Assembly: GCF_031769215.1 (NCBI RefSeq)
Contig: NW_026782006.1
Coordinates: forward strand, 972,070-1,036,069
From: Ylistrum balloti
Lineage: Eukaryota
Length of the DNA stretch: 64,000 bases
Reading direction: 5' to 3'
The position numbers and the translations under genes are program-made. The first letter of the stretch is position 1, and every line of letters begins with the position of its first letter. Of this stretch, positions 9,907-64,000 are shown piece by piece. The notes beneath the pieces were generated by a model. That model was not told the DNA's origin. It ran no database searches and was given only the letters and a program-made list of their open reading frames with translations.

Positions 9907-10157
9907 GTGAGTAATATTGAATGTATGAATGAGACAGAGTGTCCAGATTGGGTTATTGACAACTGACAGAGTGTCCAGATTGGGTTATTGAGTACTGACA
10001 GATATGCTATCAAGAATTACAAAACATTATTATGGTTTTATTATTTCTCGTCTTGTGTGTGTCACTAATGTAAATCGTAATTTGACAGACATATGTTCAA
10101 AAACAACCCAGTTCTAAGAGGTTAAAATGATCTTTTGTTTATTAAATTGTTTTCCAG

Positions 10158-19764: not shown

Positions 19765-20075
19765 AGTTTTCTTGATAGGATGTATTAAGGTGTCACACTG
19801 TCTGATAGGACGTAATAAGGTGTCACACTGTCTGATAGGACGTATTAAGGTGTCACACTGTCTGATAGGACGTATTAAGGTGTCACACTGCCTGATAGGA
19901 CGTATTAAGGTGTCACATTGTCTGATAGGACGTATTAAGGTGTCACACTGTCTGATAGGACGTATTAAGGTGTCACACTGTCTGATAGGACGTATTAAGG
20001 TGTCACACTGTCTGATAGGACGTATTAAGGTGTCACACTGTCTGATAGGACGTATTAAGGTGTCACACTGTCTGT
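19765..20075. repeat. 30-bp minisatellite of about 10 copies (tctgataggacgtattaaggtgtcacactg), 3' of the gene A stop
   Basis: Perfect direct repeats. Confidence 0.9.
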
Positions 20076-35237: not shown

Positions 35238-35759
35238 CTGTCAACAGAAACATTGTTGTGTGCTAAGCTTTTTACTATCTTATTTTTAACATCAGATTAT
35301 TATTGTTACCGTGTGGAAAGATCACATGCATGATTGGAAGACAAATATTATTATCAATACAGTGATTCGGTCCATCATGTTACTTTGTAACCTGTTACTA
35401 AGAAAGACATGTGACGTCATTGATAAAGGAACTCATAACTAGACCAAAGACAGTTACTGTTTAAATGTGAAAGTAGTAAAACCACTGGACTCTCCCTCAC
35501 TTTGGTTTCTCACAGCACTCATTAGTATGACATACTTTTCATAAGCCCTGAATCTTCTAGATAAAGAGTAGGTTCTGCCTTTGACTTAAGATATGTGTAT
35601 TACATAATTTCTGGATAGAGCCTACCAGATTAGTATAAGGTAAACTTTTCTGTAGATATAGGTATTTAAATATTGCAATCAAGATATATCCACGGTTCCT
35701 ACTGAAATCTCTATCAGCATCCATAATTGATTAGTCTTCATTCCCGATGTTTGTAAAAC

Positions 35760-38700
35760 AACTCAGACTCATCAGTATGGACAGATGTCTAGATATAAAA
35801 CAACACTGACTTGTCAGTATGGACAGATGTCTAGATATAAAACAACACTGACTTGTCAGTATGGACAGATGTCTAGATATAAAACAACACTGACTTGTCA
35901 GTATGGACAGATGTCTAGATATAAAACAACACTGACTTGTCAGTATGGACAGATGTCTAGATATAAAACAACACTGACTTGTCAGTATGGACAGATGTCT
36001 AGATATAAAACAACACTGACTTGTCGGTATGGACAGATGTCTAGATATAAAACAACACTGACTTGTCGGTATGGACAGATGTCTAGATATAAAACAACAC
36101 TGACTTGTCAGTATGGACAGATGTCTAGATATAAAACAACACAAAACAACACAGACTTGTCAGTATGGACAGATGTCTAGATATAAAACAACACTGACTT
36201 GTCAGTATGGACAGATGTCTAGATATAAAACAACACTGACTTGTCAGTATGGACAGATGTCTAGATATAAAACAACACTGACTTGTCAGTATGGACAGAT
36301 GTCTAGATATAAAACAACACTGACTTGTCAGTATGGACAGATGTCTAGATATAAAACAACACTGACTTGTCAGTATGGACAGATGTCTAGATATAAAACA
36401 ACACTGACTTGTCAGTATGGACAGATGTCTAGATATAAAACAACACTGACTTGTCAGTATGGACAGATGTCTAGATATAAAACAACACTGACTTGTCAGT
36501 ATGGACAGATGTCTAGATATAAAACAACACAGACTTGTCAGTATGGACAGATGTATAGATATAAAACAACACTGACTTGTCAGTATGGACAGATGTCTAG
36601 ATATAAAACAACACGTGTCAGTGTAGACATATGTCTAGATATAAAACAACACTGACTTGTCAGTATGGACAGATATATAGATATCACACTGACTTGTATG
36701 GACAGATGTCTAGATATAAAACAACACTGACTTGTAGATATATAAAACAACACTGACTTGTCAGTATGGACAGATGTCTAGATATAAAACAACACTGACT
36801 TGTCAGTATGGACAGATGTCTAGATATAAAACAACACTGACTTGTCTGTATGGACAGATGTCTAGATATAAAACAACACTGACTTGTCAGTATGGACAGA
36901 TGTCTAGATATAAAACACACTAGATATAAAACAACACTGACTTGTCAGTATGGACAGATGTCTAGATATAAAACAACACTGACTTGTCAGTATGGACAGA
37001 TGTCTAGATATAAAACAACACTGACTTGTCAGTATGGACAGATGTCTAGATATAAAACAACACTGACTTGTCAGTATGGACAGACTAGATATAAAACAAC
37101 ACTGACTTGTCAGTATGGACAGATGTCTAGATATAAAACAACACTGACTTGTCAGTATAGGACATGTATGGACAGATGTCTAGATATAAAACAACACTGA
37201 CTTGTCGGTATGGACAGATGTCTAGATATAAAACAACACTGACTTGTCAGTATGGACAGATGTCTAGATATAAAACAACACTGACTTGTCAGTATGGACA
37301 GATGTCTAGATATAAAACAACACTGACTTGTCAGTATGGACAGATGTCTAGATATAAAACAACACTGACTTGTCAGTATGGACAGATGTCTAGATATAAA
37401 ACAACACTGACTTGTCAGTATGGACAGATGTCTAGATATAAAACAACACTGACCTGTCATTATGGTCAGATGTCTAGATATAAAACAACACTGACTTGTC
37501 AGTATGGACAGATGTCTAGATATAAAAAAAAACACTGACTTGTCAGTATGGACAGATGTTTAGATATAAAACAACACTGACTTGTCAGTATGGACAGATG
37601 TCTTGATATAAAACAACACAGACTTGTCAGTATGGACAGATGTCTAGATATAAAACAACACTGACTTGTCAGTATGGACAGATGTCTAGATATAAAACAA
37701 CACTGACTTGTCAGTATGGACAGATGTCTAGATATAAAACAACACAGTATGGACAAATGTATAGATATAAAACAACACTGACTTGTCAGTATGGACAGAT
37801 GTCTAGATATAAAACAACACTGACTTGTCAGTACGGACAGATGTCTAGATATAAAACAACACTGACTTGTCAGTATGGACAGATATATAGATATAAAACA
37901 ACACTGACTTGTCAGTGTGGACAGATGTCTAGATATAAAACAACACTGACTTGTCAGTATGGACAGATGTCTAGATATAAAACAACACTGACTTGTCAGT
38001 ATGGACAGATGTCTAGATATAAAACAACACTGACTTGTCAGTATGGACAGATGTCTAGATATAAAACAACACAGACTCATCAGTATGGACAGATATATAG
38101 ATATAAAACAACACTGACTTGTCAGTATGGACAGATGTCTAGATATAAAACAACACTGACTTGTCAGTATGGACAGATGTCTAGATATAAAACAACACTG
38201 ACTTGTCAGTATGGACAGATGTCTAGATATAAAACAACACTGACTTGTCAGTATGGACAGATGTCTAGATATAAAACAACACTGACTTGTCAGTATGGAC
38301 AGATGTCTAGATATAAAACAACACTGACTTGTCAGTATGGACAGATGTCTAGATATAAAACAACACTGACTTGTCAGTATGGACAGATGTCTAGATATAA
38401 AACAACACTGACAGTATGGACAGATGTCTAGATATTGACTTGTCAGTATGGACAGATGTCTAGATATAAAACAACACTGACTTGTCGTATGGACAGATGT
38501 CTAGATATAAAACTAGATATAAAACAACACTGACTTGTCAGTATGGACAGATGTCTAGATATAAAACAAAAACACTGACTTGTCAGTATGGACAGTCTAG
38601 ATATAAAAAAACACTGACTTGTCAGTATGGACAGATGTCTAGATATAAAACAACACTGACTTGTCAGTATGGACAGATGTCTAGATATAAAACAACACTG

Positions 38701-41700
38701 ACTTGTCAGTATGGACAGATGTCTAGATATAAAACAACACTGACTTATCAGTATGGACAGATGTCTAGATATAAAACACACTGACTGATCAGTATGGACA
38801 GATATATAGATATAAAACAACACTGACTTGTCAGTATGGACAGATGTCTAGATATAAAACAACACTGACTTGTCAGTATGGACAGATGTCTAGATATAAA
38901 ACAACACTGACTTGTCAGTATGGACAGATGTCTAGATATAAAACAACACTGACTTGTCAGTATGGACAGATATATAGATATAAAACAACACTGACTTGTC
39001 AGTATGGACAGATGTCTAGATATAAAAAAAAACACTGACTGATCAGTATGGACAGATGTCTAGATATAAAACAACACTGACTTGTCAGTATGGACAGATG
39101 TCTAGATATAAAACAACACTGACTTGTCGGTATGGACAGATGTCTAGATATAAAACAACACTGAATTGTCAGTATGGATAGATGTCTAGATATAAAACAA
39201 CACAGACGTGTCAGTATGGACATATGTCTAGATATATGGACATATGTCTAGATATAAAACAACACTGACTTGTCAGTATGGACAGATGTCTAGATATAAA
39301 ACAACACAGACTTGTCAGTATGGACAGATGTCTAGATATAAAACAACACTGACTTGTCAGTATGGACAGATGTCTAGATATAAAACAACACTGACTTGTC
39401 AGTATGGACAGATGTCTAGAACTTGTCAGTATGGACAGATGATATATAGATATAAAACAACACTGACTTGTCAGTATGGACAGATGTCTAGATATAAAAC
39501 AACACAGACTTTTCAGTATGGACAGATGTCTAGATATAAAACAACACTGACTTGTCAGTATGGACAGATGTCTAGATATAAAACAACACTGACTCATCAG
39601 TATGGACAGATGTCTAGATATAAAACAACACAAACTCATCAGTATGGACAGATATATAGATATAAAACAACACTGACTTGTCAGTATGGACAGATGTATA
39701 GATATAAAACAACACTGACTTGTCAGTATGGACAGATGTCTAGATATAAAACAACACTGACTTGTCAGTATGGACAGATGTCTAGATATAAAACAACACT
39801 GACTTGTCAGTATGGACAGATGTCTAGATATAAAACAACACTGACTTGTCAGTATGGACAGATGTCTAGATATAAAACAACACTGACTTGTCAGTATGGA
39901 CAGATGTCTAGATATAAAAAAAAACACTGACTTGTCAGTATGGACAGATGTCTAGATATAAAACAACACTGACTTGTCAGTATGGACAGATATATAGATA
40001 TAAAACAACACTGACTTGTCAGTATGGACAGATATATAGATATAAAACAACACTGACTTGTCAGTATGGACAGATATATAGATATAAAACAACACTGACT
40101 TGTCAGTATGGACAGATGTCTAGATATAAAACAACACTGACTTGTCAGTATATGGACAGATAGATATAAAACAACACTGACTTGTCAGTATGGACAGATG
40201 TCTAGATATAAAACAACACAGACTTGTCAGTATGGACAGATATATAGATATAAAACAACACTGACTTGTCAGTATGGACTGATATATAGATATAAAACAA
40301 CACTGACCTGTCAGTATGGACAGATATATAGATATAAAACAACACTGACTTGTCAGTATGGACAGATATATAGATATAAAACAACACTGACTTGTCAGTA
40401 TGGACAGATATATAGATATAAAACAACACAGACTTGTCAGTATGGACAGATATATAGATATAAAACAACACTGACTTGTCAGTATGGACAGATATATAGA
40501 TATAAAACAACACTGACTTGTCAGTATGGACAGATGTCTAGATATAAAACAACACTGACTTGTCAGTATGGACAGATGTCTAGATATAAAACAACACAGT
40601 ATGGACAGATGTCTAGATATAAAACAACACTGACTTGTCAGTATGGACAGATGTCTAGATATAAAACAACACTGACTTGTCAGTATGGACAGATGTCTAG
40701 ATATAAAACAACACTGACTTGTCAGTATGGACAGATATCTAGATATAAAACTACACTGACTTGTCAGTATGGACAGATGTCTAGATATAAAACAACACTG
40801 ACTTGTCGGTATGGACAGATATATAGATATAAAACAACACTGACTTGTCAGTATGGACAGATGTCTAGATATAAAACAACACTGACTTGTCAGTATGGAC
40901 AGATGTATAGATATAAAACAACACTGACTTGTCAGTATGGACAGATATATAGATATAAAACAACACTGACTTGTCAGTATGGACAGATGTCTAGATATAA
41001 AACAACACTGACTTGTCAGTATGGACAGATATATAGATATAAAACAACACTGACTTGTCAGTATGGACAGATATATAGATATAAAACAACACAGACTTGT
41101 CAGTATGGACAGATATATAGATATAAAACAACACAGACTTGTCAGTATGGACAGATATATAGATATAAAACAACACTGACTTGTCAGTATGGACAGATAT
41201 ATAGATATAAAACAACACTGACTTGTCAGTATGGACAGATGTCTAGATATAAAACAACACTGACTTGTCAGTATGGACAGATTTATAGATATAAAACAAC
41301 ACTGACTTGTCAGTATGGACAGATGTCTAGTCTATTGATATAAAACAACACTGACTTGTCAGTATGGACAGATATATAGATATAAAACAACACTGACTTG
41401 TCAGTATGGACAGATGTCTAGATATAAAACAACACTGACTTGTCAGTATGGACAGATGTCTAGATATAAAACAACACAAACTCATCAGTATGGACAGATG
41501 TCTAGATATAAAACAACACTGACTTGTCGGTATGGACAGATGTCTAGATATAAAACAACACTGACTTGTCAGTATGGACAGATGTCTAGATATAAAACAA
41601 CACTGACTTGTCGGTATGGACAGATATATAGATATATAACAACACAAACTCATCAGTATGGACAAATGTATAGATATAAAACAACACTGACTTGTCGGTA

Positions 41701-41760
41701 TGGACAGATGTCTAGATATAAAACAACACTGACTTGTCAGTATGGACAGATGTCTAGAAT
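35760..41760. repeat. About 6 kb satellite with a 42-bp unit and about 140 copies (ggacagatgtctagatataaaacaacactgacttgtcagtat). It fills the intron between gene B exons
   Basis: Period 42. Two unit variants (gatgtctag and gatatatag) occur in blocks. Confidence 0.95.
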
Positions 41761-41783
41761 CCGACCATTCCTTATGAACTTAC

Positions 41784-42222
41784 GCTTGCTTGTACTGGCC
41801 ATTATTTCTTCCATTGACATTTCCAGTGAACTTGGTTTCCTTGAAAAGACATCTTCTGAAGACCCTGAAGTATTTGATGTTAGTCTAGGTCGTTCAAGAA
41901 TCTCAAATGATTCTTGTCTGGACAAACGTCGAGAGCGTACACTTGCTCCACTGACGTATCCGGACTCCTGGCGTTCATATCTTTCTTTATTTCGGTAAAC
42001 TGGAGTTGGGAAGTGCTGGGTGTCATCAATAGTCTTCCTTACATCTACTTGTAACTCCTTATTCTTTTTGGAATCAGAAGAGTACTGAGAACTGTCCGTC
42101 TCTTTTTCATTTGTCAGATCGTCACTGCTGTAACTCTCCTCTGCACTATCAAGCAAACTATCAGAATCTTCAGAACTCACGCTACAGTTGGATACAATAG
42201 TCGATGGTATACATTCAAATCT
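41784..42222 (-). CDS. Gene B exon (minus). Ser/Asp/Glu-rich: RFECIPSTIVSNCSVSSEDSDSLLDSAEESYSSDDLTNEKETDSSQYSSDSKKNKELQVDVRKTIDDTQHFPTPVYRNKERYERQESGYVSGASVRSRRLSRQESFEILERPRLTSNTSGSSEDVFSRKPSSLEMSMEEIMASTSK
   Basis: On the minus strand: acceptor tctacatttacag|AGATTTG. Donor AGCAAGC|gtaagtt. 146-codon open frame. Phase 0 in, phase 1 out. Confidence 0.65.
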
Positions 42223-42439
42223 CTGTAAATGTAGAACATAAACATGCATTTTCGTAAGATCGTGCCATATGTGAATGAAATATATAAAATTCTAATTAAG
42301 TCTGTGAATTCCTATCATGTAAATGTATTTATTCATTTGTTCTTTATTTTTCTTTCTAATCATTTAACGAGTTTCGTTTCAGTCCCGCAACATGAAAATG
42401 AAAAAAAACATAAGTCAACCTTCCTGATGTGTCTATGAC

Positions 42440-45974: not shown

Positions 45975-47606
45975 TTAAGTGTAACATGAATACGAACCTA
46001 TTTTATCGTCACGGATCCTCTGGTCTCCCCAGTTAAACAGGATACGGGCAATAAGGCTATAACTTAATGTCAAATACACATGGGGCTCCTTCAGAATCTT
46101 TTCTCGTACTTCAAGACTTTTTTTTGCATCAGCTTTTGCTTCCTCATACCTTTTTAATTGAAGGTACAAGATTGATCTGTTTCTCAAAGCTTCAGCATGA
46201 TCGTCTGTGTTATCTGTGCCACGCCTTCTTCCCTCTGCTATTGCCCTGTCGAAATGTTCCAGAGTCTCGTTAATGTACTGATCACGTGATGAATCTTTTG
46301 AAGTATTATCCAATATTTCTTTTAACAAACAAACAGCGCGGTTGTTCCTGAACCGATCTACATCTGGATGCTCTTCTTCAGTAAAACGTCTCCATAGAGA
46401 TGCCCTTTCTATTGCCTCTTCATGATACTTTCTGCATTTGTCATTGTCGTAGAGATAGAAATAACAACCAAGGTCATTAAAGACATTGGCAAGAATCATA
46501 TTTAGATTTTCATTCCTCTCCATTACCTGTTGGAGTTCTTTGTCCTCTAAATACTTCTTTGCTCTGTCCAAGCTTTTTAAGATATCATGTCGTCTTTCAA
46601 TTTTTCTGAAGTAAATAGCTTTCCTGTAGTAGTAGTTTCCTAGAGCTACTTTTATGGCGGTGTCGGATCTGCTGTTGGCCTCATCAAGTTTTTCTTCGGT
46701 AACATGTATAATGTCAGATATGCGTGTAGTATCATCCATTTCAGTCAGCAACTGTATCATGTAGCCACGGAAAAAGAACAATTTATCGATTTCGTTATTT
46801 TGCTCCGCTTTGTGTGTTACCCACTCAAGCCATCGCAGCTGTCTGTTTTGTGTAAGGGTACGTCTTCCTATCGCCAATATTCTGTTTGACGCTTGGATGT
46901 TTGACCGGCCAGTGTCATAATCATCTGTAATTTCCTGTATCATATCAAAATAGCTCTGGACATGTACGTTATACTCTCTCATGTAAGATCCAACACTGTA
47001 GTAAGAATTTTCTTGTTCCTTTCCTATAATTCCAATGATATTTTCCATGTACTCCACAAACCTTATTCTGGCGGGCTCCATGACATTTGAAAACTCACTT
47101 TTACGTTGAATTAGAAATTCAAACATTCGAGGATGAAGAGAGTACAGGATGTTTCTGTCACTGTCTCCCAAACCTGGAGGTCTTTCTTGTGTTGTGTTCC
47201 GCTCCAAGTTTCCCTCTGTCTGAACAGTCATATCGTGGATTTCAATGAGATGACGGCTTTTCAAGTGGAATAGATTCATCTTTGTATTAAGAACTGGTGA
47301 ATATGGAGCATTGTCTTCCTTCAGAACGGCATCGGCTGCATCAATGTCAAAGGATGAGGTCTTGAACAAAGTAAGCTGCATCAGAATGTTCTTCATGTTT
47401 TCGTCAAGTCTATCATAACTCTCCTGGAGGCATTTCTCCATTCTGTCCATGTTGATTACTCTATTTTTTCTCAGATGATTAATAATTTCAACTGGTTTCA
47501 CCTGTCTACAGCAGCTTCTCAGAATACTACATATTGTTCGTAAAGCTAGAGGAATGCCATCAGTCAGTGTAACAAGACTGTCGCATTCTGCTTCTGAGAC
47601 TAAGTC
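45975..47606 (-). CDS. Gene C terminal exon (minus), 543 codons plus stop. DLVSEAECDSLVTLTDGIPLAL (a GxP/GLPL-like motif), a winged-helix-like stretch, then a TPR-like helical repeat region (…ALGNYYYRKAIYFRKI…LGCYFYLYDNDKCRKYHEEAIERA…)
   Basis: On the minus strand: acceptor catgtctcttcag|GACTTAGTC (plus 47607-47608). The ORF-track ATG at 47618 has an in-frame TAA two codons upstream, so the region behaves as an internal exon. Long open frame to the stop at plus 45975-45977. Confidence 0.75.
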   Translation of the reverse strand, partial: DLVSEAECDSLVTLTDGIPLALRTICSILRSCCRQVKPVEIINHLRKNRVINMDRMEKCLQESYDRLDENMKNILMQLTLFKTSSFDIDAADAVLKEDNAPYSPVLNTKMNLFHLKSRHLIEIHDMTVQTEGNLERNTTQERPPGLGDSDRNILYSLHPRMFEFLIQRKSEFSNVMEPARIRFVEYMENIIGIIGKEQENSYYSVGSYMREYNVHVQSYFDMIQEITDDYDTGRSNIQASNRILAIGRRTLTQNRQLRWLEWVTHKAEQNNEIDKLFFFRGYMIQLLTEMDDTTRISDIIHVTEEKLDEANSRSDTAIKVALGNYYYRKAIYFRKIERRHDILKSLDRAKKYLEDKELQQVMERNENLNMILANVFNDLGCYFYLYDNDKCRKYHEEAIERASLWRRFTEEEHPDVDRFRNNRAVCLLKEILDNTSKDSSRDQYINETLEHFDRAIAEGRRRGTDNTDDHAEALRNRSILYLQLKRYEEAKADAKKSLEVREKILKEPHVYLTLSYSLIARILFNWGDQRIRDDKIGSYSCYT

Positions 47607-48099
47607 CTGAAGAGACATGAATTAAGTGCATTTTACTGTCAACCGTACTAAACTGAGCACATTTCAGTCCTTACCTTTACATGCAAATTAATTCAAATCA
47701 GAATAAGTATCAAATTGGTGTTAAAGGCAACACTTATTTACTGGATAACATCTTTTATTTGTTACTTAATATGCTCAACAAAAAAGAAACGCTCAAAGTC
47801 CCCCTGCAGTTCACCTTAGCTGGAAGGAAATACTGAAATATTTGGTCAGATATTACATCAAGAATTATCACCCTTCTCATCATTCTACCCTTGAATCATC
47901 CAAGCATGACGATGTCATTGTCTGATTTAATGAGCTACCTAAGTCCAAATCACGCGGCGTGATCAAACCAAGCCTAATTGGTTTTTCAAACGAATAATTT
48001 CAACGGATACTCTAAGTTCAGCCACGTTGGCATTTTGATTTCTCCATTGACCGAAATGCTATGCTTAACGCAAATTCAGAAGGGTAGCACAACTGCGAT

Positions 48100-48850
48100 G
48101 TTGATGGATGGTCATAGCCAAACTGCTGTCGCACGGTAGTTTGGCAATACCCCGTGTACAATTAACCGTCTATACACTTTTCCATGCTACTGGGTTAGTT
48201 TCCCATCGTCACAGGAGTGGTCTTCCGCGTGTAACGACCGCACGACAAGAGAGGACGATTCGATTGCCGCATTTGCACAACAGATTCAGAACTGCTATAG
48301 AGACTGTGTCGCGTACCTAAGGTACTCATGGCATACTTATTAGTGCTCAAACTTCCAGGAACCGCTTGAGTGCCGATATAATCATTGCGTGCTGACCTTA
48401 TGTCAGGTCACCTCTGACTCCACGGAGGCGGCAAGTGCGTCTTGACTGAATGCGCAGATATGACCCGAATAGGGTTTGGATGCGTCGGTGGAGGCGTGTG
48501 ATGTTCACTGACGAGTCTAGATACTGTCTGTATCGGTCAGACGGAAGAAAAAAAAGCATATCGCAGACGCGTTGAGCGTGTTGCCGACGCATGCGTGGTT
48601 GAACGCGATGTATTCGGTGGGGCTTCTGTAATGGCAAGTGTTGCATATTGCCAGATTCTGACGTACTTTACTCATGGCAACTACGTTCAGCCTCTAGAAT
48701 TGCCCCAAAATAACCCCGACATGTCTCCCATCGAGCATCTGTGGGGTGATCTGGACAGGCGTAGTAGGAAACGTCCAGTTGATCGCAGCATTAACACAAG
48801 AATGGAACAAAATTCCCTTGAGGCGAATTAATGTTCTCATGAATTCAATA
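48100..48850 (+). pseudogene. Tc1-like transposase pseudogene (frameshifted), antisense inside a gene C intron
   Basis: Fragments read GLPRVTTARQERTIRL..NRFRTA; then W..VMFTDESRYCLYRSDGRK..; then GGASVMA...NNPDMSPIEHLWGDLDRR. These are canonical Tc1 motifs, split across three frames. Confidence 0.7.
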
Positions 48851-51990: not shown

Positions 51991-53068
51991 GAGAACTACA
52001 GCTAAAGATATTTGCGTTTTTATAAACAGTGTCAGTAATCAACATATTCATGTATCAAACAAAATACCAAGCTAAAGATGGCTTATCTGCAAATTGCTGC
52101 TCTCACGTGTGTAAATGGTACCCTCTTTTTAAAACCGAAAGTACTGAATGTATACATAATTTGGAAGACGGACAATTTACCCGCATCATGGTTGAAAGTG
52201 TAGCGGTATGTGAGTGTGAATAATTTCTGTATAGTGATTGTATAATCACGAGTTTTTAATGAACATACATTAAATTTACTTTTTATAATTAGAAAAATAT
52301 TTTGGTACATAATTAAAGGTAATAAGGCACTGAATCAATCAGGACAAAGATACAGTGATTTGCTTTCCATCTAGACAACATGTGCAGTATCTAACACCAG
52401 AAAGAGGGTGAATAGAAGTGGGAGATAAACCCGTGTTATCATGAGAATAGTATGCGTATGTTATTATACAAATATGTTTGAACAAAACTTTGATAACACA
52501 AGTTCAAATCTACTAGCACATACAATCAACTTATGATGAAACGGCTCTACGCATAGTTCGTGCTCTGAAGTATGTCCTTTTTCTTGTCACTTTTAGTATA
52601 AATTTTATCTATGTATGAAGAAGAATTGATATGTATCTTAATTAACATTCACCATACTAACAAAAGAAATGAACACATGTTTAGAAATACTGTAAAATCA
52701 TAAAAGATCATAATGAAGATTAGAAATGTGCAATACGTGTAAGGCGTTCCATTGGTATTCTGAACACTCTGTACATTACAGTTGTTAACCTCATGTTATT
52801 GTATTTGTCCATTATATTGAAATGACCATTATAAGCCATTTATAAAACGCCAAATTCGGTGTACAAACACCGACAGTGAATTGCATCAAATGAGTATCCA
52901 TATATTTCATTAGCTTATCAATAACATATTACACAGGTCTGTAAATGTAATACGCTTGAATCTTAATACTTACATAGCTGTGCGGTACATGTTTAAGGAC
53001 AAAAGGGTTCACAAAGTATTAACATTTACATCATTCTGATGGTAAAAGGAAATGTCAAATAATCTTAC

Positions 53069-53175
53069 CTTACAAGTATCTCGTAACTTCTCCAATATCT
53101 TTTGGACGAATTGTAGAAACTGATTTTCATTTTTGTGAATGATATCGTCCACATTATCCAGCATGACAATTGTTC
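53069..53175 (-). CDS. Gene C exon 4 (minus). RTIVMLDNVDDIIHKNENQFLQFVQKILEKLRDTCK, containing Walker B hhhhDD (IVMLDNVDD)
   Basis: On the minus strand: acceptor tctctacag|GAACAATTG. Donor TGTAAG|gtaaga. Phase 1 in, phase 0 out. Confidence 0.75.
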
Positions 53176-53284
53176 CTGTAGAGATAACAATGGTGTTAAA
53201 TAGGTATAATGATTAACGATATCTGAACACCCATTTCACTTATCGTCTTGATCGATTTCACTATTATCATTAATATTGAACTGC

Positions 53285-53560
53285 ACTATACCTTTGTTTC
53301 GTTCTTCTAGGACTCGCCAGTAATATTAAGGACATCCATTTTAAAGACGATTGAGGAAACTCCAAAGTGATCGAAAGAACATTCAAACTCTTGACGGGGA
53401 GGTGCACTAGCCCCATGATTCCAGAAATTTCGCAATTTTCATGTATCTGATAATAACTTAATAACAATGTCTAGTATATGTGTGCATTCTGAATCATGTG
53501 ACTATTGAATTAATTAAAATGTAGCATGCAGGTTACAGCAAACCGAAGTAACGTATATAT
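53285..53560. repeat. Interspersed repeat, copy 2 (about 270 bp), related to 51715-51990
   Basis: As for copy 1. Both copies sit in gene C introns in the same orientation. Confidence 0.6.
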
Positions 53561-54215
53561 GATCCCGAATAGAAAACCAAAAAATATTTTATTAGATTTA
53601 AGGAGGATATAATAGTGTGAACAAATTAAAATAAATCTAAATAACAAATGATTTGTTTAAAAGAGTTGGGGAAATATTGAAATGTTCTTTGACGTCAGAT
53701 AGTTGCACGTAACGCTTGACAACGAAATTTTGAATTTACGTGGTATTTCAACATCTCGTGCTTTTTTTCTTTGGTAATCGCTTACAGATCTGCTTTATAC
53801 ACCAAATTAGAGATAACCAAATAGGCACATGAAAAATATTTGTTAGAAAACCAGCTTAGTTAACCTTTGCCTCGTTTGCGACAGAACAGCAAAACATACC
53901 AACTTCAATGCAGTGACCAAAAACATCGCTCTGATTGGCCAAAACTAAAAAAGGTGATATCATTGCTAGAAAAGTGTTATCATATACGATATCTTATATC
54001 TTAAATGAAATTGATAGATTCCTATATTTCATTAGCAAAAATTAAACCTGATAAATATATTGTGGTGTTTTATAATTAAAACAAAATAAACAAAAAAATG
54101 ACACGAACATCTTCTGACAAAGAATTTTTCTGCCATGTTTTGAAATATGATTATTTATATTATTCATATCGTTATAAATATAGGTAAACACTTTGACACA
54201 TCTGATAATACTTAC

Positions 54216-54376
54216 TGCGAGTGATTTTACTAAGGTGGTCTAAAATGTTGGCTTGCATCTTGCTGTCCTTGGTATCCTTAAGACTGTTTAATAGGTCATC
54301 GGATGACATGCCGTCGTCTTTCAATTGGAGCTCCAAGACAATGTCCTTCAACAAATCCCCCATAGAATCTTTCTCT
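54216..54376 (-). CDS. Gene C exon 3 (minus). REKDSMGDLLKDIVLELQLKDDGMSSDDLLNSLKDTKDSKMQANILDHLSKITR
   Basis: On the minus strand: acceptor cattttattacag|AGAGAAAG. Donor ACTCGCA|gtaagt. Phase 2 in, phase 1 out. Confidence 0.7.
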
Positions 54377-54625
54377 CTGTAATAAAATGCAAGAAAATGG
54401 TGATAAAGTTGGGAATACATAGAAGGCTTTAATAAGTTTCTATATAAATGTTATATGTTTGCATTCATTTAAAATTGTTTGTGTAAGATATTCTCGATTC
54501 AATCACAGATTGTCTCAACAATGCCGTAATGTCTTAATTAAGTTATTTTTCTGACGTGAGATTTCATACCACATCAGAATTTATTTTGATCAAAATATAA
54601 TCTATTAAACAATGGGTTAGTTTAC

Positions 54626-54737
54626 CTTAGATCAATTTTGATAACCTGCCAGTGCTTTTTAGAAGACCATAGTCTACGACAAATTTCATTGCCAATAGCA
54701 GTCTTTCCTATGCCTCCGGCGCCCGAAATGCTCACAG
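54626..54737 (-). CDS. Gene C exon 2 (minus). AVSISGAGGIGKTAIGNEICRRLWSSKKHWQVIKIDL, containing the Walker A P-loop GAGGIGKT
   Basis: On the minus strand: acceptor cttatttacag|CTGTGAGC. Donor CTAAG|gtaaac. Phase 1 in, phase 2 out. Confidence 0.75.
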
Positions 54738-55244
54738 CTGTAAATAAGATCAAATAAAACATTACGTATGAGTTTTTAAAAAAGTTATGATTTCTACGTC
54801 ACTGAAAAACTTTCTAATTATAAATAAGTGATACTCAAATGAACGCTTTACACTCTGGTCTGAACAGTAAAAAGTGTATGGCCCTTCAATTTAAATCATT
54901 TATGTATGTGATTAAAATGTTGATCATGAAAAGAGCGTTAAATACGTACGTTTACGGAATTAGCCAGATATCAATTATCACTTTTCCAATTAATCTCTAA
55001 TGATGCAACCAGCCAGACAAAATATTAGCACTGAAACTTTTAAAACGTGTTTCAATTTTGAGGTGGGGGTATCGATGCAGGAGGTCACTAATTAAGCATA
55101 TCAAATTAACTATAATTACTAAACATTATGCTATAACTTTGATTACTTATTAAAGATATCATTCTACCTTTGAATACTAATTTAACATTATACACTAGAT
55201 ATAATAATTAGTTATAGTACTCCAACCGGAAGAACTCTTCTTAC

Positions 55245-55671
55245 CAGGAACGGTGCTTTCGATGAAATCCTTGATTTGATTTTCCCGTCCAACGAAGTTT
55301 ACATCAAATATGTCCATCTGCATACATCTTCGTTTGTGTTCCACAAACTTCGTTTTGTACTTTTTTAACATATCCGCTACTCTGTTACGGCCTAGGTCAC
55401 GATGCCAGTTTTGAAAATCTGTCACATTGATCAGAAAATCAAGCATGTCTTCTTCTCCGAAATTATTCTTCAGAATTTGGAAATAATGGGTCGCATTTTG
55501 TATATTGTTTTTGGACAACCCGCCGAGTGAAGTCCTCGACAGATTGATAATCTCGTCAAATGTCAAGTCATCGCCATCCAAATCTGAGATGAGATCATTT
55601 ACAATCACATCAAAGGGATCTAACCTAGTTTGATCTCCAAACGCAATACGGTCATCTTTTGTGTAAGCCAT
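55245..55671 (-). CDS. Gene C exon 1 (minus), start codon at 55671-55669. MAYTKDDRIAFGDQTRLDPFDVIVNDLISDLDGDDLTFDEIINLSRTSLGGLSKNNIQNATHYFQILKNNFGEEDMLDFLINVTDFQNWHRDLGRNRVADMLKKYKTKFVEHKRRCMQMDIFDVNFVGRENQIKDFIESTVP. Death-fold-like (CARD/DD-like) N-terminus, then the linker leading into the P-loop
   Basis: First ATG after an in-frame stop. Kozak-like accacaATGG. Donor CCTG|gtaaga (plus 55239-55244). Phase 1 out. Confidence 0.65.
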
Positions 55672-55972
55672 TGTGGTCAGATTCAGCTCGGCTCTGTAGG
55701 TATTTCTCTTTGCCCCAGAGGTGGATTCATATATTTTGACAAACGTCTATATCTGGACCAAGAACTATGGAATATCCATCTACCAAGAAAATAAAAAAAC
55801 AGGCAGGTAATGACAGCTCTGATATATACAATGAGATTTTGTCCCTTATCACGGGCCTTCGGCGTCCATCGGCCGAAAGGATTATCGAGACACCAAAATT
55901 TACACCACTTTTTTCGATTTTAGTTTATAACTTTGTATTTATTTGATGTTCTATGTGAAAATATGACAATGG

Positions 55973-58900
55973 CAGTGGCCCCCTCCAGGGGGACTCAGGA
56001 GGTGGGGTGAGGGCTCCTGGAAAAATTTGTAAACAAAGAAGCCTGTCGGTGCTAACATGGCTTAATTAAATGACCATGAATAACACAATGTTTAATTGTT
56101 GTTAGAAACAAGAAATAAAAGTGGGTGGCTAAAAGGCATCGTCCCATTCAGAATCTTCTTCATCGCTGACAGTGTCCTCTTACCTTTCCTTCATTTCATG
56201 GTCAAGGTTTAGCCGTTGCACAGCCACCCTCACCTGGGACACAGGCTCACCAAGACTGCCAGATACAACAGCTGGGTCAGTTTGTATCCCGGAGTCCTGG
56301 ACCTCGGTCAGAAGTTCCTTATCAATCATGGCATATGAAATATCACGTTTGGGAGGTGGTTTATAACTTTCTATTTATTTGATGTTCTATGTGAAAACTT
56401 GACAATTCGCTTGTCCGTACTGTCGATATTACTTCAGCCATCATATATCTATTCCAGTAACACGCATCCAAAGAACAATTGTTTGTTAGGATCCAGTACG
56501 GATATTAGACCATAACCGTTAATATTACTTACCAGGTTTCATATATGTATATCACTCATACTTATCATTGCAGTCCCATTATCTCTACTTTAATCTACTA
56601 ATCAAACCTCACCTTCCAAGGTTCTGTGATCACATTGGCCTGAATGAATATGACATTTCTCCTTTTTACGTAGTTTACATGTTTATAACATCCTCGGTAA
56701 GTGTAGGACTAGACGCTTTCGTAGAATTCTGATCATTCAGTTTTTATGCAAAGGGGGTTTAATCTGCATTCGGTAAAAATGATATCCGATCTTATTGACA
56801 CATTTTATGGTCTTTACTTGTTCTTTAAACGTTAAGCGATGAAAAAAATTGTTTACAGACCGACGATAGACTACGGACGTAAGGCGACTGTCCAGCATTT
56901 GAACTTGGGCTGAAAAAGATTACATATCAAAGGATGTTCTCAAAAAGATCGCGGTTTTTCTTTTAACACCCTCGACTGTATATGTTAAACGTAGTTACCT
57001 TATATATTTCTGACTACTATTTTTATCATGAATTGTAGGTAACAATATTGTATATATATATACAGTCTACATATCAGGTGATTTCCTAGGTAAATACAGT
57101 CTACATACCAGGTGCTTTCCCAGATAAGTACATTCTACATACCAGTTGATTCCCCAGGTAAGTACCATAATCATACCATTTGATTCCCTAGGTAAGTACC
57201 ATAATCATACCAGGTGATTTCCCAGGTAAGAACAGTCTACATACCAGGTGCTTTCCCAGATAAGTACAGTCTACATACCAGATGATTTCCCAGGTATGTA
57301 CAGCCTACATACCAAATGATTTACCAGGTAAGTACCGTCTACATACACAGGTGATTTTCAGGTAAGTACAGCCTACATAACAGGTGATTTCCCAGGTAAG
57401 TACAGCCTACATACCAAATAATTTCCCAGGTGTTAGTAAATTACAATAATGTCTATATGACATGCCTCGAGAGCGTTGCTCGAAACTATCACTGATACAT
57501 GTTTACCTGCAAATCAACCTCCGACATCAAGGCCTTCCCGTTTTGACTACGGCTATTGGGTCTCCTAGAGAGACTTCTTCAGCAATTATTCAGGCTACAG
57601 CTCCGACAAGCACCTATACATTACAAGCCAATAGATGAAGTTTCAGACTGGGTCCCCTACCTGTTTGTTCTGTCACGAACTATAAAATAGAGAACATTTC
57701 CTTCTATACTGTCCGAAACGGGAACGCAAACATGAAAAACATCTACCACAAATACTTTTAAACACCAGATATATACTATGAGTGTAGCTACTGATCCTGA
57801 AGTCGACAAGATTGTACCTTCCCGATAGTGCAAGAATTGTATAATCCAAGTGAAAACGACACGAGCAAAATCGAAAGAATCAGCCTATTTCTGGAATATT
57901 ACCTTCATCTGCAAAGATCAAGTTTGATGGTCTCCAAATTGAAGCTAACCACTTCAGTGTACTATAACAAATGTCAGTTACTATTATGAGTCCAAGTAGG
58001 GGATATGTTGATTTAATGTAACTTCCTCTTCTAACATACAATTTGTATGACTGCGCATTTAATCTTTCCGTGATGTGCGCAGCGTTGACGTGTGCATCAA
58101 TTAATTTTCATGCGTTAATGTGCATTACCCATTTCTAAACTGGGGTACAAATCCAGTTTTAAGTTTCAGCTAAATTATGACGACCGACACAAAAAATTGA
58201 AAAAATGAGCTGCACTTACATATTTATCTGCTTACATCCCAGTATGTAGGAATAACACTTTAAAAAATTGATAGAACTTCAATATCCAGGGCGTTGGATT
58301 GCAAGGTCAAGACACAAATGAGACAGGATATACAAAAATCCACCAATCATTTGACGAAATCCAAAAAAAAAGACACGCACTTCAACAATAACGGTAACAC
58401 ACAGATGTGTATGTGTATCGTTATATAACAGTGATGTTTATGTATCCAGGGTTTTCTATAAATATTTTAATAATAGGCTGTAAAATGGAGTAGGAGTCTG
58501 GCGAAGCCAGCCGACTGAGCCGTAACGCGGCGAGGCGGGGATGGTTTGAGGAGGGGGCACTGGCCCCCTCCAGGGGGACTCAGGAGGTGGGGTAAGGGCT
58601 CCTGGAAAAAATTGTAAACAAAGAAGCCTGTCGGTGCTAACATGGCTTAATTAAATGACCATGAATAACACAATGTTTAAAAGGCATCGTCCCATTCAGA
58701 ATCTTCTTCATCGCTGACAGTGTCCTCTTACCTTTCCTTCATTTCATGGTCAAGGTTTAGCCGTTGCACAGCCACCCTCACCTGGGACACAGGCTCACCA
58801 AGACCGCCAGATACAACAGCTGGGTCAGTTTGTATCCCAGAGTCCTGGACCTCGGTCAGAAGTGCCTTATCAATCATGGCATATGAAATATCACGTTTGG

Positions 58901-61900
58901 GAGGTGGTTTATAACTTTCTATTTATTTTGATGTTCTATGTGAAAACTTGACAATTCGCTTGTCCGTACTGTCGATATTACTTCAGCCATCATATATCTA
59001 TTCCAGTAACACGCATCCAAAGAACAATTGTTTGTTAGGATCCAGTACGGATATTAGACCATAACCGTTAATATTACTTACCAGGTTTCATATATGTATA
59101 TCACTCATACTTATCATTGCAGTCCCATTATCTCTACTTTAATCTACTAATCAAACCTCACCTTCCAAGGTTCTGTGATCACATTGGCCTGAATGAATAT
59201 GACATTTCTCCTGTTTACGTAGTTTACATGTTTATAATATCCTCGGTAAGTGTAGGACTAGACACTTTCATAGAGTTCTGATCATTTCAGCTTTTATGCA
59301 AAGGGGGTTTAATCTGCATTCGGTAAAAATGATATCCGATCTTATTGACACATTTTATGGTCTTTACTTGTTCTTTAAACGTTAAGCGATGAAAAAATTG
59401 TTTACAGACCGACGATAGACTACGGACGTAAGGCGACTGTCCAGCATTTGAACTTGGGCTGAAAAAGATTACATATCAAAGGGTGTCCTCAAAAAGATCG
59501 CGGTTTTTCTTTTAACACCCTCGACTGTATATGTTAAACGTAGTTACCTTATATATTTCTGACTACTATTTTTATCATGAATTGTAGGTAACAATATTGT
59601 ATATATATATATACAGTCTACATACCAGGTGATTTCCTAGGTAAATACAGTCTACATACCAGGTGCTTTCCCAGATAAGTACATTCTACATACCAGTTGA
59701 TTCCCCAGGTAAGTACCATAATCATACCATTTGATTCCCCAGGTAAGTACCATAATCATACCAGGTGATTTCCCAGGTAAGAACAGTCTACATACCAGGT
59801 GCTTTCCCAGATAAGTACAGTCTACATACCAGATGATTTCCCAGGTATGTACAGCCTACATACCAAATGATTTACCAGGTAAGTACCGTCTACATACACA
59901 GGTGATTTTCCAGGTATGTACCGTCTACATACCAGGTGATTTTCCAGGTAAGTACTTCTTCATACCAGGTGATTTCCCAGGTAAGTACCGTCTACATGCC
60001 AGGTGATTACCCGGAGAAGTACCGTTTACATACCAGATGATTTCCCAGGTAAATATATTCTACATACCACATGATTTCCCAGGTAAATATATTCTACATA
60101 CCAGGTGATTTCTCAGGTATGTACCGTCTACATACCAGTTGATTTCCCAGGTAAGTACCGCCTACATACCAGGTGATTTCCCAGGTAAGTACCGTTTACA
60201 TACCGGTTGATTTCCCAGGAAAGCACCGTTTACGTACCAGTGATTTACCAGGTAAATACAGACTACATACCAGGTGATTTTCAGGTAAGTACAGCCCACA
60301 TACCAGGTGATTTTCAGGTAAGTACAGCCTACATACCAGGTAATTTCCCAGGTGTTAGTAAATTACAATAATGTCTATATGACATGCCTCGAGAGCGTCG
60401 CTCGAAACTATCACTGATACATGTTTACCTGCAAATCAACCTCCGACATCAAGGCCTTCCCGTTTTGACTACGGCTATTGGGTCTCCTAGAGAGACTTCT
60501 TCAGCAATTATTCAGGCTACAGCTCCGACAAGCACCTATACATTACAAGCCAATAGATGAAGTTTCAGACTGGGTCCCCTACCTGTTTGTTCTGTCACGA
60601 ACTATAAAATAGAGAACATTTCCTTCTATACTGTCCGAAACGGGAACGCAAACATGAAAAACATCTACCACAAATACTTTTAAACACCAGATATATACTA
60701 TGAGTGTAGCTACTGATCCTGAAGTCGACAAGATTGTACCTTCCCGATAGTGCAAGAATTGTATAATCCAAGTGAAAACGACACGAGCAAAATCGAAAGA
60801 ATCAGCCTATTTCTGGAATATTACCTTCATCTGCAAAGATCAAGTTTGATGGTCTCCAAATTGAAGCTAACCACTTCAGTGTACTATAACAAATGTCAGT
60901 TACTATTATGAGTCCAAGTAGGGGATATGTTGATTTAATGTAACTTCCTCTTCTAGCATACAATTTGTATGACTGCGCATTTAATCTTTCCGTGATGTGC
61001 GCAGCGTTGACGTGTGCATCAATTAATTTTCATGCGTTAATGTGCATTACCCATTTCTAAACTGGGGTACAAATCCAGTTTTAAGTTTCAGCTAAATTAT
61101 GACGACCGACACAAAAAATTGAAAAAATGAGCTGCACTTACATATTTATCTGCTTACATCCCAGTATGTAGGAATAACACTTTAAAAAATTGATAGAACT
61201 TCAATATCCAGGGCGTTGGATTGCAAGGTCAAGACACAAATGAGACAGGATATACAAAAATCCACCAATCATTTGACGAAATCCAAAAAAAAAGACACGC
61301 ACTTCAACAATAACGGTAACACACAGATGTGTATGTGTATCGTTATATAACAGTGATGTTTATGTATCCAGGGTTTTCTATAAATATTTTAATAATAGGC
61401 TGTAAAATGGAGTAGGAGTCTGGCGAAGCCAGCCGACTGAGCCGTAACGCGGCGAGGCGGGGATGGTTTGAGGAGGGGGCACTGGCCCCCTCCAGGGGAC
61501 TCAGGAGGTGGGGTGAGGGCTCCTGGAAAAAATTGTAAACAAAGAAGCCTGTCGGTGCTAACATGGCTTAATTAAATGACCATGAATAACACAATGTTTA
61601 AAAGGCATCGTCCCATTCAGAATCTTCTTCATCGCTGACAGTGTCCTCTTACCTTTCCTTCATTTCATGGTCAAGGTTTAGCCGTTGCACAGCCACCCTC
61701 ACCTGGGACACAGGCTCACCAAGACCGCCAGATACAACAGCTGGGTCAGTTTGTATCCCAGAGTCCTGGACCTCGGTCAGAAGTGCCTTATCAATCATGG
61801 CATATGAAATATCACGTTTGGGAGGTGGTTTATAACTTTCTATTTATTTTGATGTTCTATGTGAAAATATGACAATTCGCTTGCCCGTACTGTCGATATT

Positions 61901-64000
61901 ACTTCAGCCATCATATATCTACTCCAGTAACACGCATCCAAAGAACAATTGTTTGTTAGGATCCAGTACGGATATTAGACCATAACCGTTAATATTACTT
62001 ACCAGGTTTCATATATGTATATCACTCATACTTATCATTGCAGTCCCATTATCTCTACTTTAATCTACTAATCAAACCTCACCTTCCAAGGTTCTGTGAT
62101 CACATTGGCCTGAATGAATATGACATTTCTCCTGTTTACGTAGTTTGCATGTTTATAATATCCTCGGTAAGTGTAGGACTAGACACTTTCATAGAGTTCT
62201 GATCATTTCAGCTTTTATGCAAAGGGGGTTTAATCTGCATTCGGTAAAAATGATATCCGATCTGATTGACACATTTTAAGGTCTTTACTTGTTCTTTAAA
62301 CGTTAAGCGATGAAAAAATTGTTTACAGACCGACGATAGACTACGGACGATAAGCGACTTGTCCAGCATTTGAACTTGGGCTGAAAAAGATTACATTTCA
62401 AAGGGTGTCCTCAAAAAGATCGCGGTTTTTCTTTTAACACCCTCGACTGTATATGTTAAACGTAGTTACCTTATATATTTCTGACTACTATTTTTATCAT
62501 GAATTGTAGGTAACAATATTGTATATATATATATACAGTCTACATACCAGGTGATTTCCTAGGTAAATACAGTCTACATACCAGGTGCTTTCCCAGATAA
62601 GTACATTCTACATACCAGTTGATTCCCCAGGTAAGTACCATAATCATACCATTTGATTCCCCAGGTAAGTACCATAATCATACCAGGTGATTTCCCAGGT
62701 AAGAACAGTCTACATACCAGGTGCTTTCCCAGATAAGTACAGTCTACATACCAGATGATTTCCCAGGTATGTACAGCCTACATACCAAATGATTTACCAG
62801 GTAAGTACCGTCTACATACACAGGTGATTTTCCAGGTATGTACCGTCTACATACCAGGTGATTTTCCAGGTAAGTACTTCTTCATACCAGGTGATTTCCC
62901 AGGTAAGTACCGTCTACATGCCAGGTGATTACCCGGAGAAGTACCGTTTACATACCAGATGATTTCCCAGGTAAATATATTCTACATACCACATGATTTC
63001 CCAGGTAAATATATTCTACATACCAGGTGATTTCTCAGGTATGTACCGTCTACATACCAGTTGATTTCCCAGGTAAGTACCGCCTACATACCAGGTGATT
63101 TCCCAGGTAAGTACCGTTTACATACCGGTTGATTTCCCAGGTAAGTACCGTTTACATACCGGTTGATTTCCCAGGAAAACACCGTTTACGTACCAGTGAT
63201 TTACCAGGTAAATACAGACTACATACCAGGGGGTTTTCAGGTAAGTACAGCCTACATACCAGGTGATTTTCAGGTAAGTACAGCCTACATAACAGGTGAT
63301 TTCCCAGGTAAGTACAGCCTACATACCAAATAATTTCCCAGGTGTTAGTAAATTACAATAATGTCTATATGACATGCCTCGAGAGCGTCGCTCGAAACTA
63401 TCACTGATACATGTTTACCTGCAAATCAACCTCCGACATCAAGGCCTTCCCGTTTTGACTACGGCTATTGGGTCTCCTAGAGAGACTTCTTCAGCAATTA
63501 TTCAGGCTACAGCTCCGACAAGCACCTATACATTACAAGCCAATAGATGAAGTTTCAGACTGGGTCCCCTACCTGTTTGTTCTGTCACGAACTATAAAAT
63601 AGAGAACATTTCCTTCTATACTGTCCGAAACGGGAACGCAAACATGAAAAACATCTACCACAAATACTTTTAAACACCAGATATATACTATGAGTGTAGC
63701 TACTGATCCTGAAGTCGACAAGATTGTACCTTCCCGATAGTGCAAGAATTGTATAATCCAAGTGAAAACGACACGAGCAAAATCGAAAGAATCAGCCTAT
63801 TTCTGGAATATTACCTTCATCTGCAAAGATCAAGTTTGATGGTCTCCAAATTGAAGCTAACCACTTCAGTGTACTATAACAAATGTCAGTTACTATTATG
63901 AGTCCAAGTAGGGGATATGTTGATTTAATGTAACTTCCTCTTCTAGCATACAATTTGTATGACTGCGCATTTAATCTTTCCGTGATGTGCGCAGCGTTGA
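55973..64000. repeat. Tandem macro-repeat: 3 copies at about 55973-58500, 58500-61420 and 61420 onward, with periods 2548 and 2921 bp. Each copy embeds a 34-bp minisatellite (57060-57440, 59590-60360, 62510-63350)
   Basis: Identical landmarks (gcctgtcggtgctaacatgg) sit at 56041, 58626 and 61555. Identical ORF-track peptides sit at 56172, 58720 and 61641. Copies 2 and 3 are near-identical. Confidence 0.9.

Follow-up and report, generated by a model that had tools for sequence, protein, structure and literature searches.

Near its right end, the window (the whole 64,000-nucleotide stretch of Ylistrum balloti DNA analysed here) carries the first coding exon of a minus-strand gene and, directly upstream of it, an array of large tandem repeats. 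The array consists of at least three contiguous copies of a 2.5–3.0 kb unit, placed head to tail in the same orientation. Each unit is divided into segments A, B and C (Table 1).

Table 1. Coordinates of the features at the locus, numbered within the window
Feature	Position	Strand	Remarks
First coding exon of the neighbouring gene, predicted NB-ARC/TPR STAND	55195..55671	-	ATG at 55671; from ORF listing
L-flank spacer, between ATG and repeat	55672..55922	.	unique, 251 bp; without similarity to unit
B0, isolated 48-bp copy of segment B	55923..55970	+	direct repeat; abuts copy 1
Macro-repeat copy 1, 2585 bp	55971..58555	+	A1 55971-56358, B1 56359-56406, C1 56407-58555
Macro-repeat copy 2, 2922 bp	58556..61477	+	A2 58556-58906, B2 58907-58955, C2 58956-61477
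Macro-repeat copy 3	61478..64000	+	cut by window end; A3 61478-61827, B3 61828-61876, C3 from 61877
Minisatellite of copy 1	57061..57431	+	10.9 units; map cBCdEFGHeab
Minisatellite of copy 2	59612..60353	+	21.9 units, 742 bp; map ABCDEFGHIJKLMNOPQRSTUV
Minisatellite of copy 3	62534..63343	+	23.9 units, 810 bp; map ABCDEFGHIJKLMNOPQWXSYZab
Perfect 9-bp GC hairpin GGAGGGGGC-ACTG-GCCCCCTCC, copy 1/copy 2 junction	58550..58571	+	exact match
Identical 9-bp GC hairpin, copy 2/copy 3 junction	61472..61493	+	exact match
49-codon ORF, one per unit	56180-56329, 58728-58877, 61649-61798	-	judged a chance ORF

The first coding exon of the gene is 56% identical to the NB-ARC protein P0017 of Argopecten irradians, which carries PF00931; the alignment starts from residue 11 at the N-terminus of P0017. 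This is the only homologue found for the gene's N-terminus and, against its locus (L001), only the coding exons align, at 67–73%. The P-loop exon gives weak matches to nSTAND3 and NB-ARC. The large exon contains a GxP-type 'DGIPLAL' motif, with TPR_12 and TPR_10 matches above the Pfam cut-off. By its predicted domains, the neighbour is an NB-ARC plus TPR STAND gene. The initial annotation had called it an NLR-like, immune-type gene, which holds in the broad sense only; a strict NLR assignment, with NACHT and leucine-rich repeats, does not fit its domains. An exon of URB1 is 71% identical to Pecten maximus, in keeping with the genome of a pteriomorph bivalve. Dozens of minisatellite arrays occur within the window.

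On the gene strand, the spacer contains a polypyrimidine stretch and an AG acceptor-like site ending at 55791, 119 nt upstream of the ATG. The corresponding exon would start at 55790, which hints at an upstream non-coding exon and a 5'-UTR intron.

Direct-repeat start-to-start spacings of 2548/2549 and 2921/2922 bp cover the region 55971–64000, with unit lengths of 2549–2990 bp; from copy 2 to copy 3, the spacing is 2921 bp before the minisatellite and 2990 bp after it. The overall order is L-flank, B0, A1 B1 C1, A2 B2 C2, A3 B3 C3, and the array continues past the end of the window, at 64000. The unit is AT-rich (~39% GC), and copy 1 has a private 37-bp insertion at 56093–56129. Copy 1 begins 300 bp from the ATG; repeat-derived sequence already begins 252 bp from it, with B0. 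This short element is 94% identical to B1 and differs from B3 by one mismatch and one indel. Since B0 lies directly to the left of copy 1, the true left end of the array is probably 252 bp from the ATG.

Outside the minisatellite, the three copies show a pairwise identity of 98.0–100%: 98.0–99.2% before it and 99.7–100% after it. Along the 1056 bp that precede it, copy 1 has about 17 private changes, copy 3 about 13 and copy 2 one, whereas the 1124 bp that follow hold only two differences among the copies, a roughly ten-fold greater uniformity. Besides being unevenly spread along the unit, the variants are common to the copies in a mosaic pattern; two variable characters of segment B, for instance, occur in all four combinations among the four B copies. 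Identity at such a level over 2.5 kb cannot have arisen by chance. The presence of three distinct mosaic versions speaks for a genuine duplication with later unequal exchange or gene conversion, and against an assembly stutter.

The main variable part of the unit is the 34-bp minisatellite, immediately preceded by a (TA)6-7 run. The 3' unit composition of the arrays differs between copies 2 and 3, and the 3' units 'a b', found in copies 1 and 3, are absent from copy 2. The minisatellite of copy 1 looks like one of the copy 3 type from which units I to Z have been deleted, the remainder being joined via a hybrid unit.

Much of what the initial annotation described at the locus is thus borne out: a tandem macro-repeat with near-identical copies, the first of them about 300 bp upstream of the ATG, and a copy 1 that is shorter through its shorter minisatellite (10.9 units against ~22–24). 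Its reading as recent duplication or concerted evolution also finds support, in the 0–2% divergence, the uneven differences and the mosaic sharing. Copies 2 and 3 were said to be almost identical with a period of 2921, including the length of their minisatellite; the period and the identity stand, but the minisatellites differ in unit number (21.9 against 23.9) and in length (742 against 810 bp).

The GC hairpin is intact at both unit junctions. It belongs to a 131-nt GC-rich structured stretch and appears in the minimum free energy structure, with z = -4.5 for 58490–58620 (DNA fold). The left edge of copy 1, its breakpoint, falls within this hairpin. A likeness between a G5/C5 palindrome motif and part of a 158-bp satellite at the A. 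irradians locus was considered and dismissed, the alignment score being inside the shuffle range.

We find nothing gene-like in the unit. Rfam gives nothing credible on 52000–64000 (E up to 1) or on a single unit (E up to 10), the hits being noise far under threshold (Yfr1, HYMAI, GIR1), and ARAGORN finds no tRNA; by these two programs, the unit holds no known RNA gene that would make the array a tandem cluster of 5S, snRNA, SL RNA or tRNA genes. Pfam returns 0 matches for ten stop-to-stop ORFs and for the unit without its minisatellite, translated in all six frames. A query of concatenated ORFs retrieves no homologue from 5.8 billion proteins, and exact look-ups in the contig index, made with ORFs of the unit and with the first exon of the gene, give none. 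Strings of the unit have 0 matches in metagenomes and 0 in the full text of the literature. A bacterial promoter and terminator scan is uninformative for a eukaryote. From these searches, we infer that the unit has no coding or known-RNA function, although a lack of matches is no proof that function is lacking.

The 49-codon minus-strand ORF that the initial annotation singled out in each unit is indeed present in all three copies, but its standing as a gene is unsupported. ORFs of that size are expected by chance, and we judge this one to be at chance level. It has no homologue by protein search or Pfam, and its divergence between copies is equal to or greater than that of its surroundings, copy 1 differing at two residues. 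Its conservation in all units would simply reflect the youth of the copies. An in-frame join of this ORF to the ATG of the gene was also considered: it could pass only via a weak acceptor near 55694, since the route through the strong acceptor at 55790 meets a stop before the ATG.

Altogether, the array is real yet ordinary. We consider it probable that it results from a real duplication, a local tandem amplification of non-coding, macrosatellite-type sequence beside the STAND gene. A 2.5–3.0 kb segment directly upstream of the gene would have undergone at least three head-to-tail duplications, by a replication-based mechanism or by unequal exchange. On the simplest view of its left end, the array would start at B0 and its first unit would have lost segment C, with one of the breakpoints inside the GC hairpin; a template switch after stalling at a hairpin would be an equivalent account. 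Unequal crossing-over and gene conversion would then maintain the homogeneity of the copies, and the embedded minisatellite would gain and lose its units at a higher rate. An influence on the neighbouring gene, if any, would be exerted via proximity, copy-number change or chromatin state, and not by a product of the repeat.

It is less likely, in our view distinctly so, that the repeat represents a non-autonomous mobile element whose insertion or replication placed its copies head to tail. The candidates are a Helitron/Helentron relative (HINE-like), Penelope- or LINE-like partial tandems and a TRIM/LARD-type LTR element. When segments are read in the order C-A-B, the array becomes [B0][A1B1][C1A2B2][C2A3B3], a set of nested 5'-truncated copies with the common 3' end ...TGACAAT, and nested truncation is the form taken by retroelement partial tandems. 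The unit also has a central tandem-repeat block, set after a short (TA)n run, and a strong GC hairpin cluster; oyster HINEs have central satellite-like arrays, and whole Helitrons may repeat in tandem (PMC7492417). However, the hairpin lies ~1.1 kb downstream of the minisatellite, compared with a right flank of ~60 bp in Cg_HINE. The 11–12 bp subterminal inverted repeats of HINEs have no counterpart here: there is no inverted repeat of at least 14 nt (seed 10) in 55700–58700, and the best end-to-end inverted match scores 8, against 8.5 ± 1.0 in shuffles. The unit ends can be set in two registers, with ...TGACAAT followed by TCGCTTG... or with ...GAGGAGGG followed by GGCACTGG...; neither has a CTRR after the hairpin, and the canonical Helitron end pair 5'-TC...CTRR-3', with a hairpin 10–12 nt before the end, is absent.

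Of the LTR-type features, only a purine run, GAGGAGGGGG, is seen: it stands before segment A in the manner of a polypurine tract, and the sequence after segment B (ATTCGCTTGTCCGTACTG) has no TGG-type, tRNA-complementary primer-binding site. A tandem of LTR, TRIM or LARD elements, for which one would expect terminal direct repeats with TG...CA ends, a primer-binding site behind the 5' repeat and a polypurine tract ahead of the 3' repeat, was rejected; it also leaves the extra B0 copy unexplained. Against a Penelope-like element or a retrozyme, no RT or GIY-YIG remnant is found by Pfam in six frames, and no hammerhead, HDV-like or other ribozyme by Rfam at E up to 10; remnants of transposase, integrase and endonuclease are equally absent in all frames. 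Nor do we find the terminal inverted repeats and target-site duplication of a MITE or DNA transposon. Elsewhere in the window (1–55900, 56 kb) there is no further copy or fragment of the unit, and no module is common to the flanks of the window's 15 minisatellite arrays.

A functional reading, which we hold to be improbable, sees in the array a series of promoter and non-coding first-exon modules for the STAND gene, whose copy number would alter expression. A TATA-like element in segment B, TTATAAAC on the gene strand, is followed ~30 nt downstream by the ORF region of A. The exon in A would splice from the donor-like AAG/GTAAGA at 56183 (also 58731 and 61652), which on the same strand overlaps the 3' end of the 49-codon ORF, to the acceptor-like site at 55790, whose strength suggests the 5'-UTR intron mentioned above. 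The A. irradians homologue has a similarly placed acceptor-like site upstream of its ATG, but the upstream similarity between the two species is insignificant (score 18 vs 15.3 ± 1.9 in shuffles). Moreover, the unit is absent from the 10 kb upstream of that homologue, where other large tandem arrays are present; donor-like sites that score equally well or better are common in the unit and are no evidence by themselves; and the pace at which segment A diverges between copies matches that of the other parts of the unit. The initial annotation had placed the promoter of the gene on an unstable array. The array does start 252–300 bp from the ATG, and a promoter of this immune-type gene on it is no more than plausible. 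A bolder proposal takes the unit as a promoter and non-coding first-exon module: units and the embedded minisatellite, as they are gained and lost, would tune or diversify how a candidate immune receptor is expressed from one individual to another. This strikes us as very improbable.

Finally, an assembly artefact was raised in the initial annotation; an expansion of a single- or lower-copy locus by mis-joined haplotypes or reads is highly improbable: the copies are very similar, with a 0–2% divergence that falls within the allelic range of highly heterozygous bivalves, and the array touches the window end, but there are three distinct versions with private substitutions and indels and three minisatellite maps, where two haplotypes of a single-copy locus would give at most two, the sequence has 0 Ns or gaps, ordinary long reads span units of ~3 kb, and the truncated first unit with its specific B0/A1 junction has a biological-looking breakpoint.

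On present evidence, the local amplification that we favour matters little: it adds a further large-unit repeat to a bivalve genome saturated with tandem repeats. Its practical value is that of a likely copy-number-variable marker beside a candidate immune gene, and of a locus where assemblies may disagree. It also offers a clear, small example of a minisatellite that changes fast inside a macro-repeat that diverges slowly, with the array edge at a hairpin. The locus would carry greater weight if the STAND gene used the units as alternative promoters or first exons, or if they represented a new family of mobile elements in scallops.

Among known systems, the unit can be compared with Cg_HINE of Crassostrea gigas and DINE-1 (PMC7492417). 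Like them, it has conserved left and right modules around a central array of short tandem repeats, with a simple-repeat run ahead of this array and a hairpin or palindrome within the unit; Cg_HINE is, in addition, a bivalve repeat. In contrast, the unit is much larger than the Cg_HINE flanks, has its hairpin outside such a short right flank and lacks subterminal inverted repeats; Helentron HINEs occur as many dispersed copies, inserted at TT without target-site duplication, whereas no dispersed copies of the unit are seen in the window. With partial tandems of Penelope-like elements and other retroelements, and with tandem TRIMs, the array shares a 5'-truncated copy upstream of fuller copies with a common 3' end (B0, A1B1, full units); unlike them, the unit has no RT or GIY-YIG domain, hammerhead ribozyme, primer-binding site, or poly(A) or simple-repeat tail.

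The human macrosatellites RNU2, DXZ4, D4Z4 and TAF11-like are an established kind of sequence (PMC5687341). Repeats of this kind are GC-rich and include ones that encode U2 snRNA, DUX4 or USP17, whereas the unit described here is AT-rich, belongs to a bivalve, is visible in at least three copies and has no detected gene or RNA. As in these macrosatellites, multi-kb units follow each other head to tail with a very high inter-unit identity of the kind brought about by concerted evolution, here together with mosaic sharing of variants. The units of RNU2 are near-identical except for an embedded microsatellite (PMC5687341); the 34-bp minisatellite embedded in our array is likewise its main variable part.

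The minus-strand STAND gene (ATG at 55671) is flanked upstream by a real, recently amplified, partly homogenised and non-coding array of macro-repeats. Tandem Repeats Finder and a direct-repeat search identified a large direct repeat arranged head-to-tail from 55971, where copy 1 first matches the other copies, up to the window end, confirming a first copy some 300 bp from the ATG. Start-to-start spacing is 2548/2549 and 2921/2922 bp before the internal 34-bp minisatellite, and 2922 and 2990 bp after it.

Features of the macro-repeat array and the neighbouring STAND gene (B0 to B3, copies of unit segment B; in maps, each letter is one version of the 34-bp unit)
Feature	Position	Strand	Details
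Macro-repeat copy 1	55971-58555
Macro-repeat copy 2	58556-61477
Macro-repeat copy 3	61478 to beyond 64000 (window end)
Minisatellite, copy 1	57061-57431		10.9 units; cBCdEFGHeab
Minisatellite, copy 2	59612-60353		21.9 units; ABCDEFGHIJKLMNOPQRSTUV
Minisatellite, copy 3	62534-63343		23.9 units; ABCDEFGHIJKLMNOPQWXSYZab
B0	55923-55970		48 bp; abuts copy 1 on its left
B1	56359-56406
B2	58907-58955
B3	61828-61876
Junction hairpin	58550-58571		copy 1/copy 2
Junction hairpin	61472-61493		copy 2/copy 3
First coding exon	55195-55671	minus
Walker-A exon	~54625-54760	minus	weak nSTAND3 and NB-ARC matches
Walker-B-like exon	~53012-53170	minus
547-codon exon	45975-47618	minus	'DGIPLAL' motif; TPR_12/TPR_10 matches

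Each unit consists of successive segments A, B and C, with B coming after the first ~350-390 bp. Since the lone piece B0 abuts copy 1 and no unit-like sequence was found left of 55923, the layout is L / B0 / A1 B1 C1 / A2 B2 C2 / A3 B3 C3... The unit junction (end of C/start of A) carries a perfect 9-bp GC hairpin, GGAGGGGGC-ACTG-GCCCCCTCC, placed in a 131-nt GC-rich stretch, with folding far better than that of shuffles (z = -4.5); the left boundary of A1 lies inside the hairpin sequence. In the simplest reading, the array would start with B0, its first unit having lost segment C, with one breakpoint in the hairpin; a template switch upon stalling at the hairpin would be equivalent. Alternatively, the left edge may consist of nested 5′-truncated copies with a common 3′ end (B0; A1B1; full units), such as the partial tandems of some retroelements display.

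Uniformity is uneven along the unit. The copies are pairwise 98.0-99.2% identical over the 1.06 kb preceding the minisatellite and 99.7-100% identical over the 1.12 kb following it, a 1124-bp part with two differences in total: a roughly ten-fold contrast. The part preceding the minisatellite groups copies 2 and 3 together, with copy 1 apart; private changes there number ~17 in copy 1 (including a 37-bp insertion at 56093-56129), ~13 in copy 3 and just 1 in copy 2. Cutting each minisatellite into 34-bp units gave the maps of the table, and the equal length initially assigned to copies 2 and 3 proved wrong (21.9 versus 23.9 units). The terminal units 'a b' are common to copies 1 and 3 and absent from copy 2; judging from the maps, the copy 1 minisatellite looks like a copy-3-type array minus units I to Z, via the hybrid unit 'e'. 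This mosaic sharing of variants and the ~ten-fold contrast fit the recent duplication or concerted evolution put forward in the initial annotation, and are what results when genuine paralogues undergo unequal exchange and gene conversion. An assembly artefact is unlikely, because the three versions are mutually distinct, whereas a single-copy locus whose two haplotypes were mis-joined cannot give three, and because the region contains no Ns.

The minisatellite consensus holds TTTCCCAG/GTAAGT, i.e. splice acceptor and donor consensus back to back. It has TCCCAGGTAAATA in common with an unrelated-looking 47/68-bp array at 2890-3419, the blastn similarity covering 17 nt only. In copy 1, the CpG observed/expected ratio goes from ~0.35-0.56 in segment A (55900-56350) to ~1.35 in the 300-bp stretch before the minisatellite (56650-56950), a swing seen again in copy 2.

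With Rfam, 12 kb searched at E up to 1 gave no family, and a single unit searched at E up to 10 gave only noise; no tRNA was found. Neither ten ORF fragments nor six-frame translations of the non-minisatellite parts contain a Pfam domain; the concatenate of all unit ORFs matched no homologous protein in a search of 5.8 billion sequences, and two unit ORFs have no exact match in the contig index. The unit is devoid of inverted and terminal inverted repeats, of Helitron-type TC...CTRR ends in both possible registers, and of a primer-binding site after segment B. No further copy or fragment of it turned up in the window's other 56 kb.

The ORF listing does include a 49-codon minus-strand ORF in each unit, as first described. 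ATG-initiated ORFs of at least 49 codons number 2 in the unit versus 3.0 ± 1.6 in Markov-shuffled versions, where the longest ORF averages 75 codons. Its 150 nt show three differences between copies 1 and 2, two of them amino-acid changing, at a density at least that of the surrounding sequence. The ORF is at chance level, and seems conserved only because the copies are young.

The gene left of the array is an NB-ARC and TPR STAND gene: 'NLR-like' is right in the broad sense, but it is not a NACHT-LRR NLR. The sole detectable relative of its N-terminal half is the Argopecten irradians NB-ARC protein P0017 (56% identity), whose locus L001 (CM084264.1) aligns with the STAND gene locus in coding exons only. 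Because the 10 kb upstream of this homologue lack the macro-repeat unit and hold different tandem arrays, 58 bp x 96 and 155 bp x 7 among them, large tandem repeats beside such genes are commonplace in these genomes, and the unit is not a conserved part of the family's upstream region. The L001 arrays lie at 1-5604, 6047-7196, 7435-8347 and 18799-19812 (58 bp x 96, 155 bp x 7, 77-90 bp x 6 and 158 bp x 6.4); a G5/C5 palindromic motif within the 158-bp unit is similar to the junction hairpin (32/43 columns, a score within the shuffle range).

Repeat-derived sequence begins 252 bp from the STAND gene ATG. The gene strand has a strong polypyrimidine-AG site 119 nt before the ATG, and the downstream exon would begin at 55790; the A. 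irradians ATG is preceded by a similarly placed site, with no significant cross-species similarity. This strong acceptor would put a stop ahead of the ATG, which leaves a 5′-UTR role as the only conceivable one. A 5′-UTR intron, if there is one, would require the gene's first exon to lie within the array or in the 130 bp ahead of B0. Segment B has a TATA-like TTATAAAC, and in segment A the 49-codon ORF ends at a donor-like AAG/GTAAGA; donor-like sites are common throughout the unit. A role for the units as modules supplying a promoter and a first exon to the STAND gene is a speculative idea, to which we give a slim chance.

Elsewhere, the window holds dozens of 20-47-bp minisatellite arrays. 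Such arrays pack the introns of a URB1-like gene (1-42000, plus strand; exons e.g. 8934-9914 and 18225-19178), among them a 6-kb array of 42-bp units at 35754-41758; exon 8934-9914 shares 71% identity with Pecten maximus nucleolar pre-ribosomal-associated protein 1 (URB1, XP_033740037.1), which places the window in the genome of a pteriomorph, scallop-like bivalve. A comparison of the sequences flanking the window's 15 minisatellite arrays revealed no module in common that would point to a single family of repeat-carrying transposons. A 170-codon ORF rich in serine and acidic residues and without Pfam match (41737-42249, minus strand) adjoins the 42-bp array at its end; it may belong to another gene as an exon, or form a 3′ part of the STAND gene. 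An intron of the latter contains a degenerate Tc1/mariner-like transposase remnant (~48100-48830, plus strand; weak DDE_3 match, E 0.006).

Bivalve Helentron-derived HINEs have tandem repeats at their centre as well as palindromes, and a tandem arrangement can occur in Helitrons (PMC7492417). The subterminal inverted repeats and termini that define HINEs were looked for in the unit without success, and tests for the features that define Penelope-like elements, TRIMs and MITEs were likewise negative. Among established categories, the macrosatellite comes closest. The array, of low general interest, is a further case of this known kind, whose kb-sized tandem units are homogenised within an array and, in some cases such as RNU2, are identical except for an embedded simple repeat (PMC5687341).
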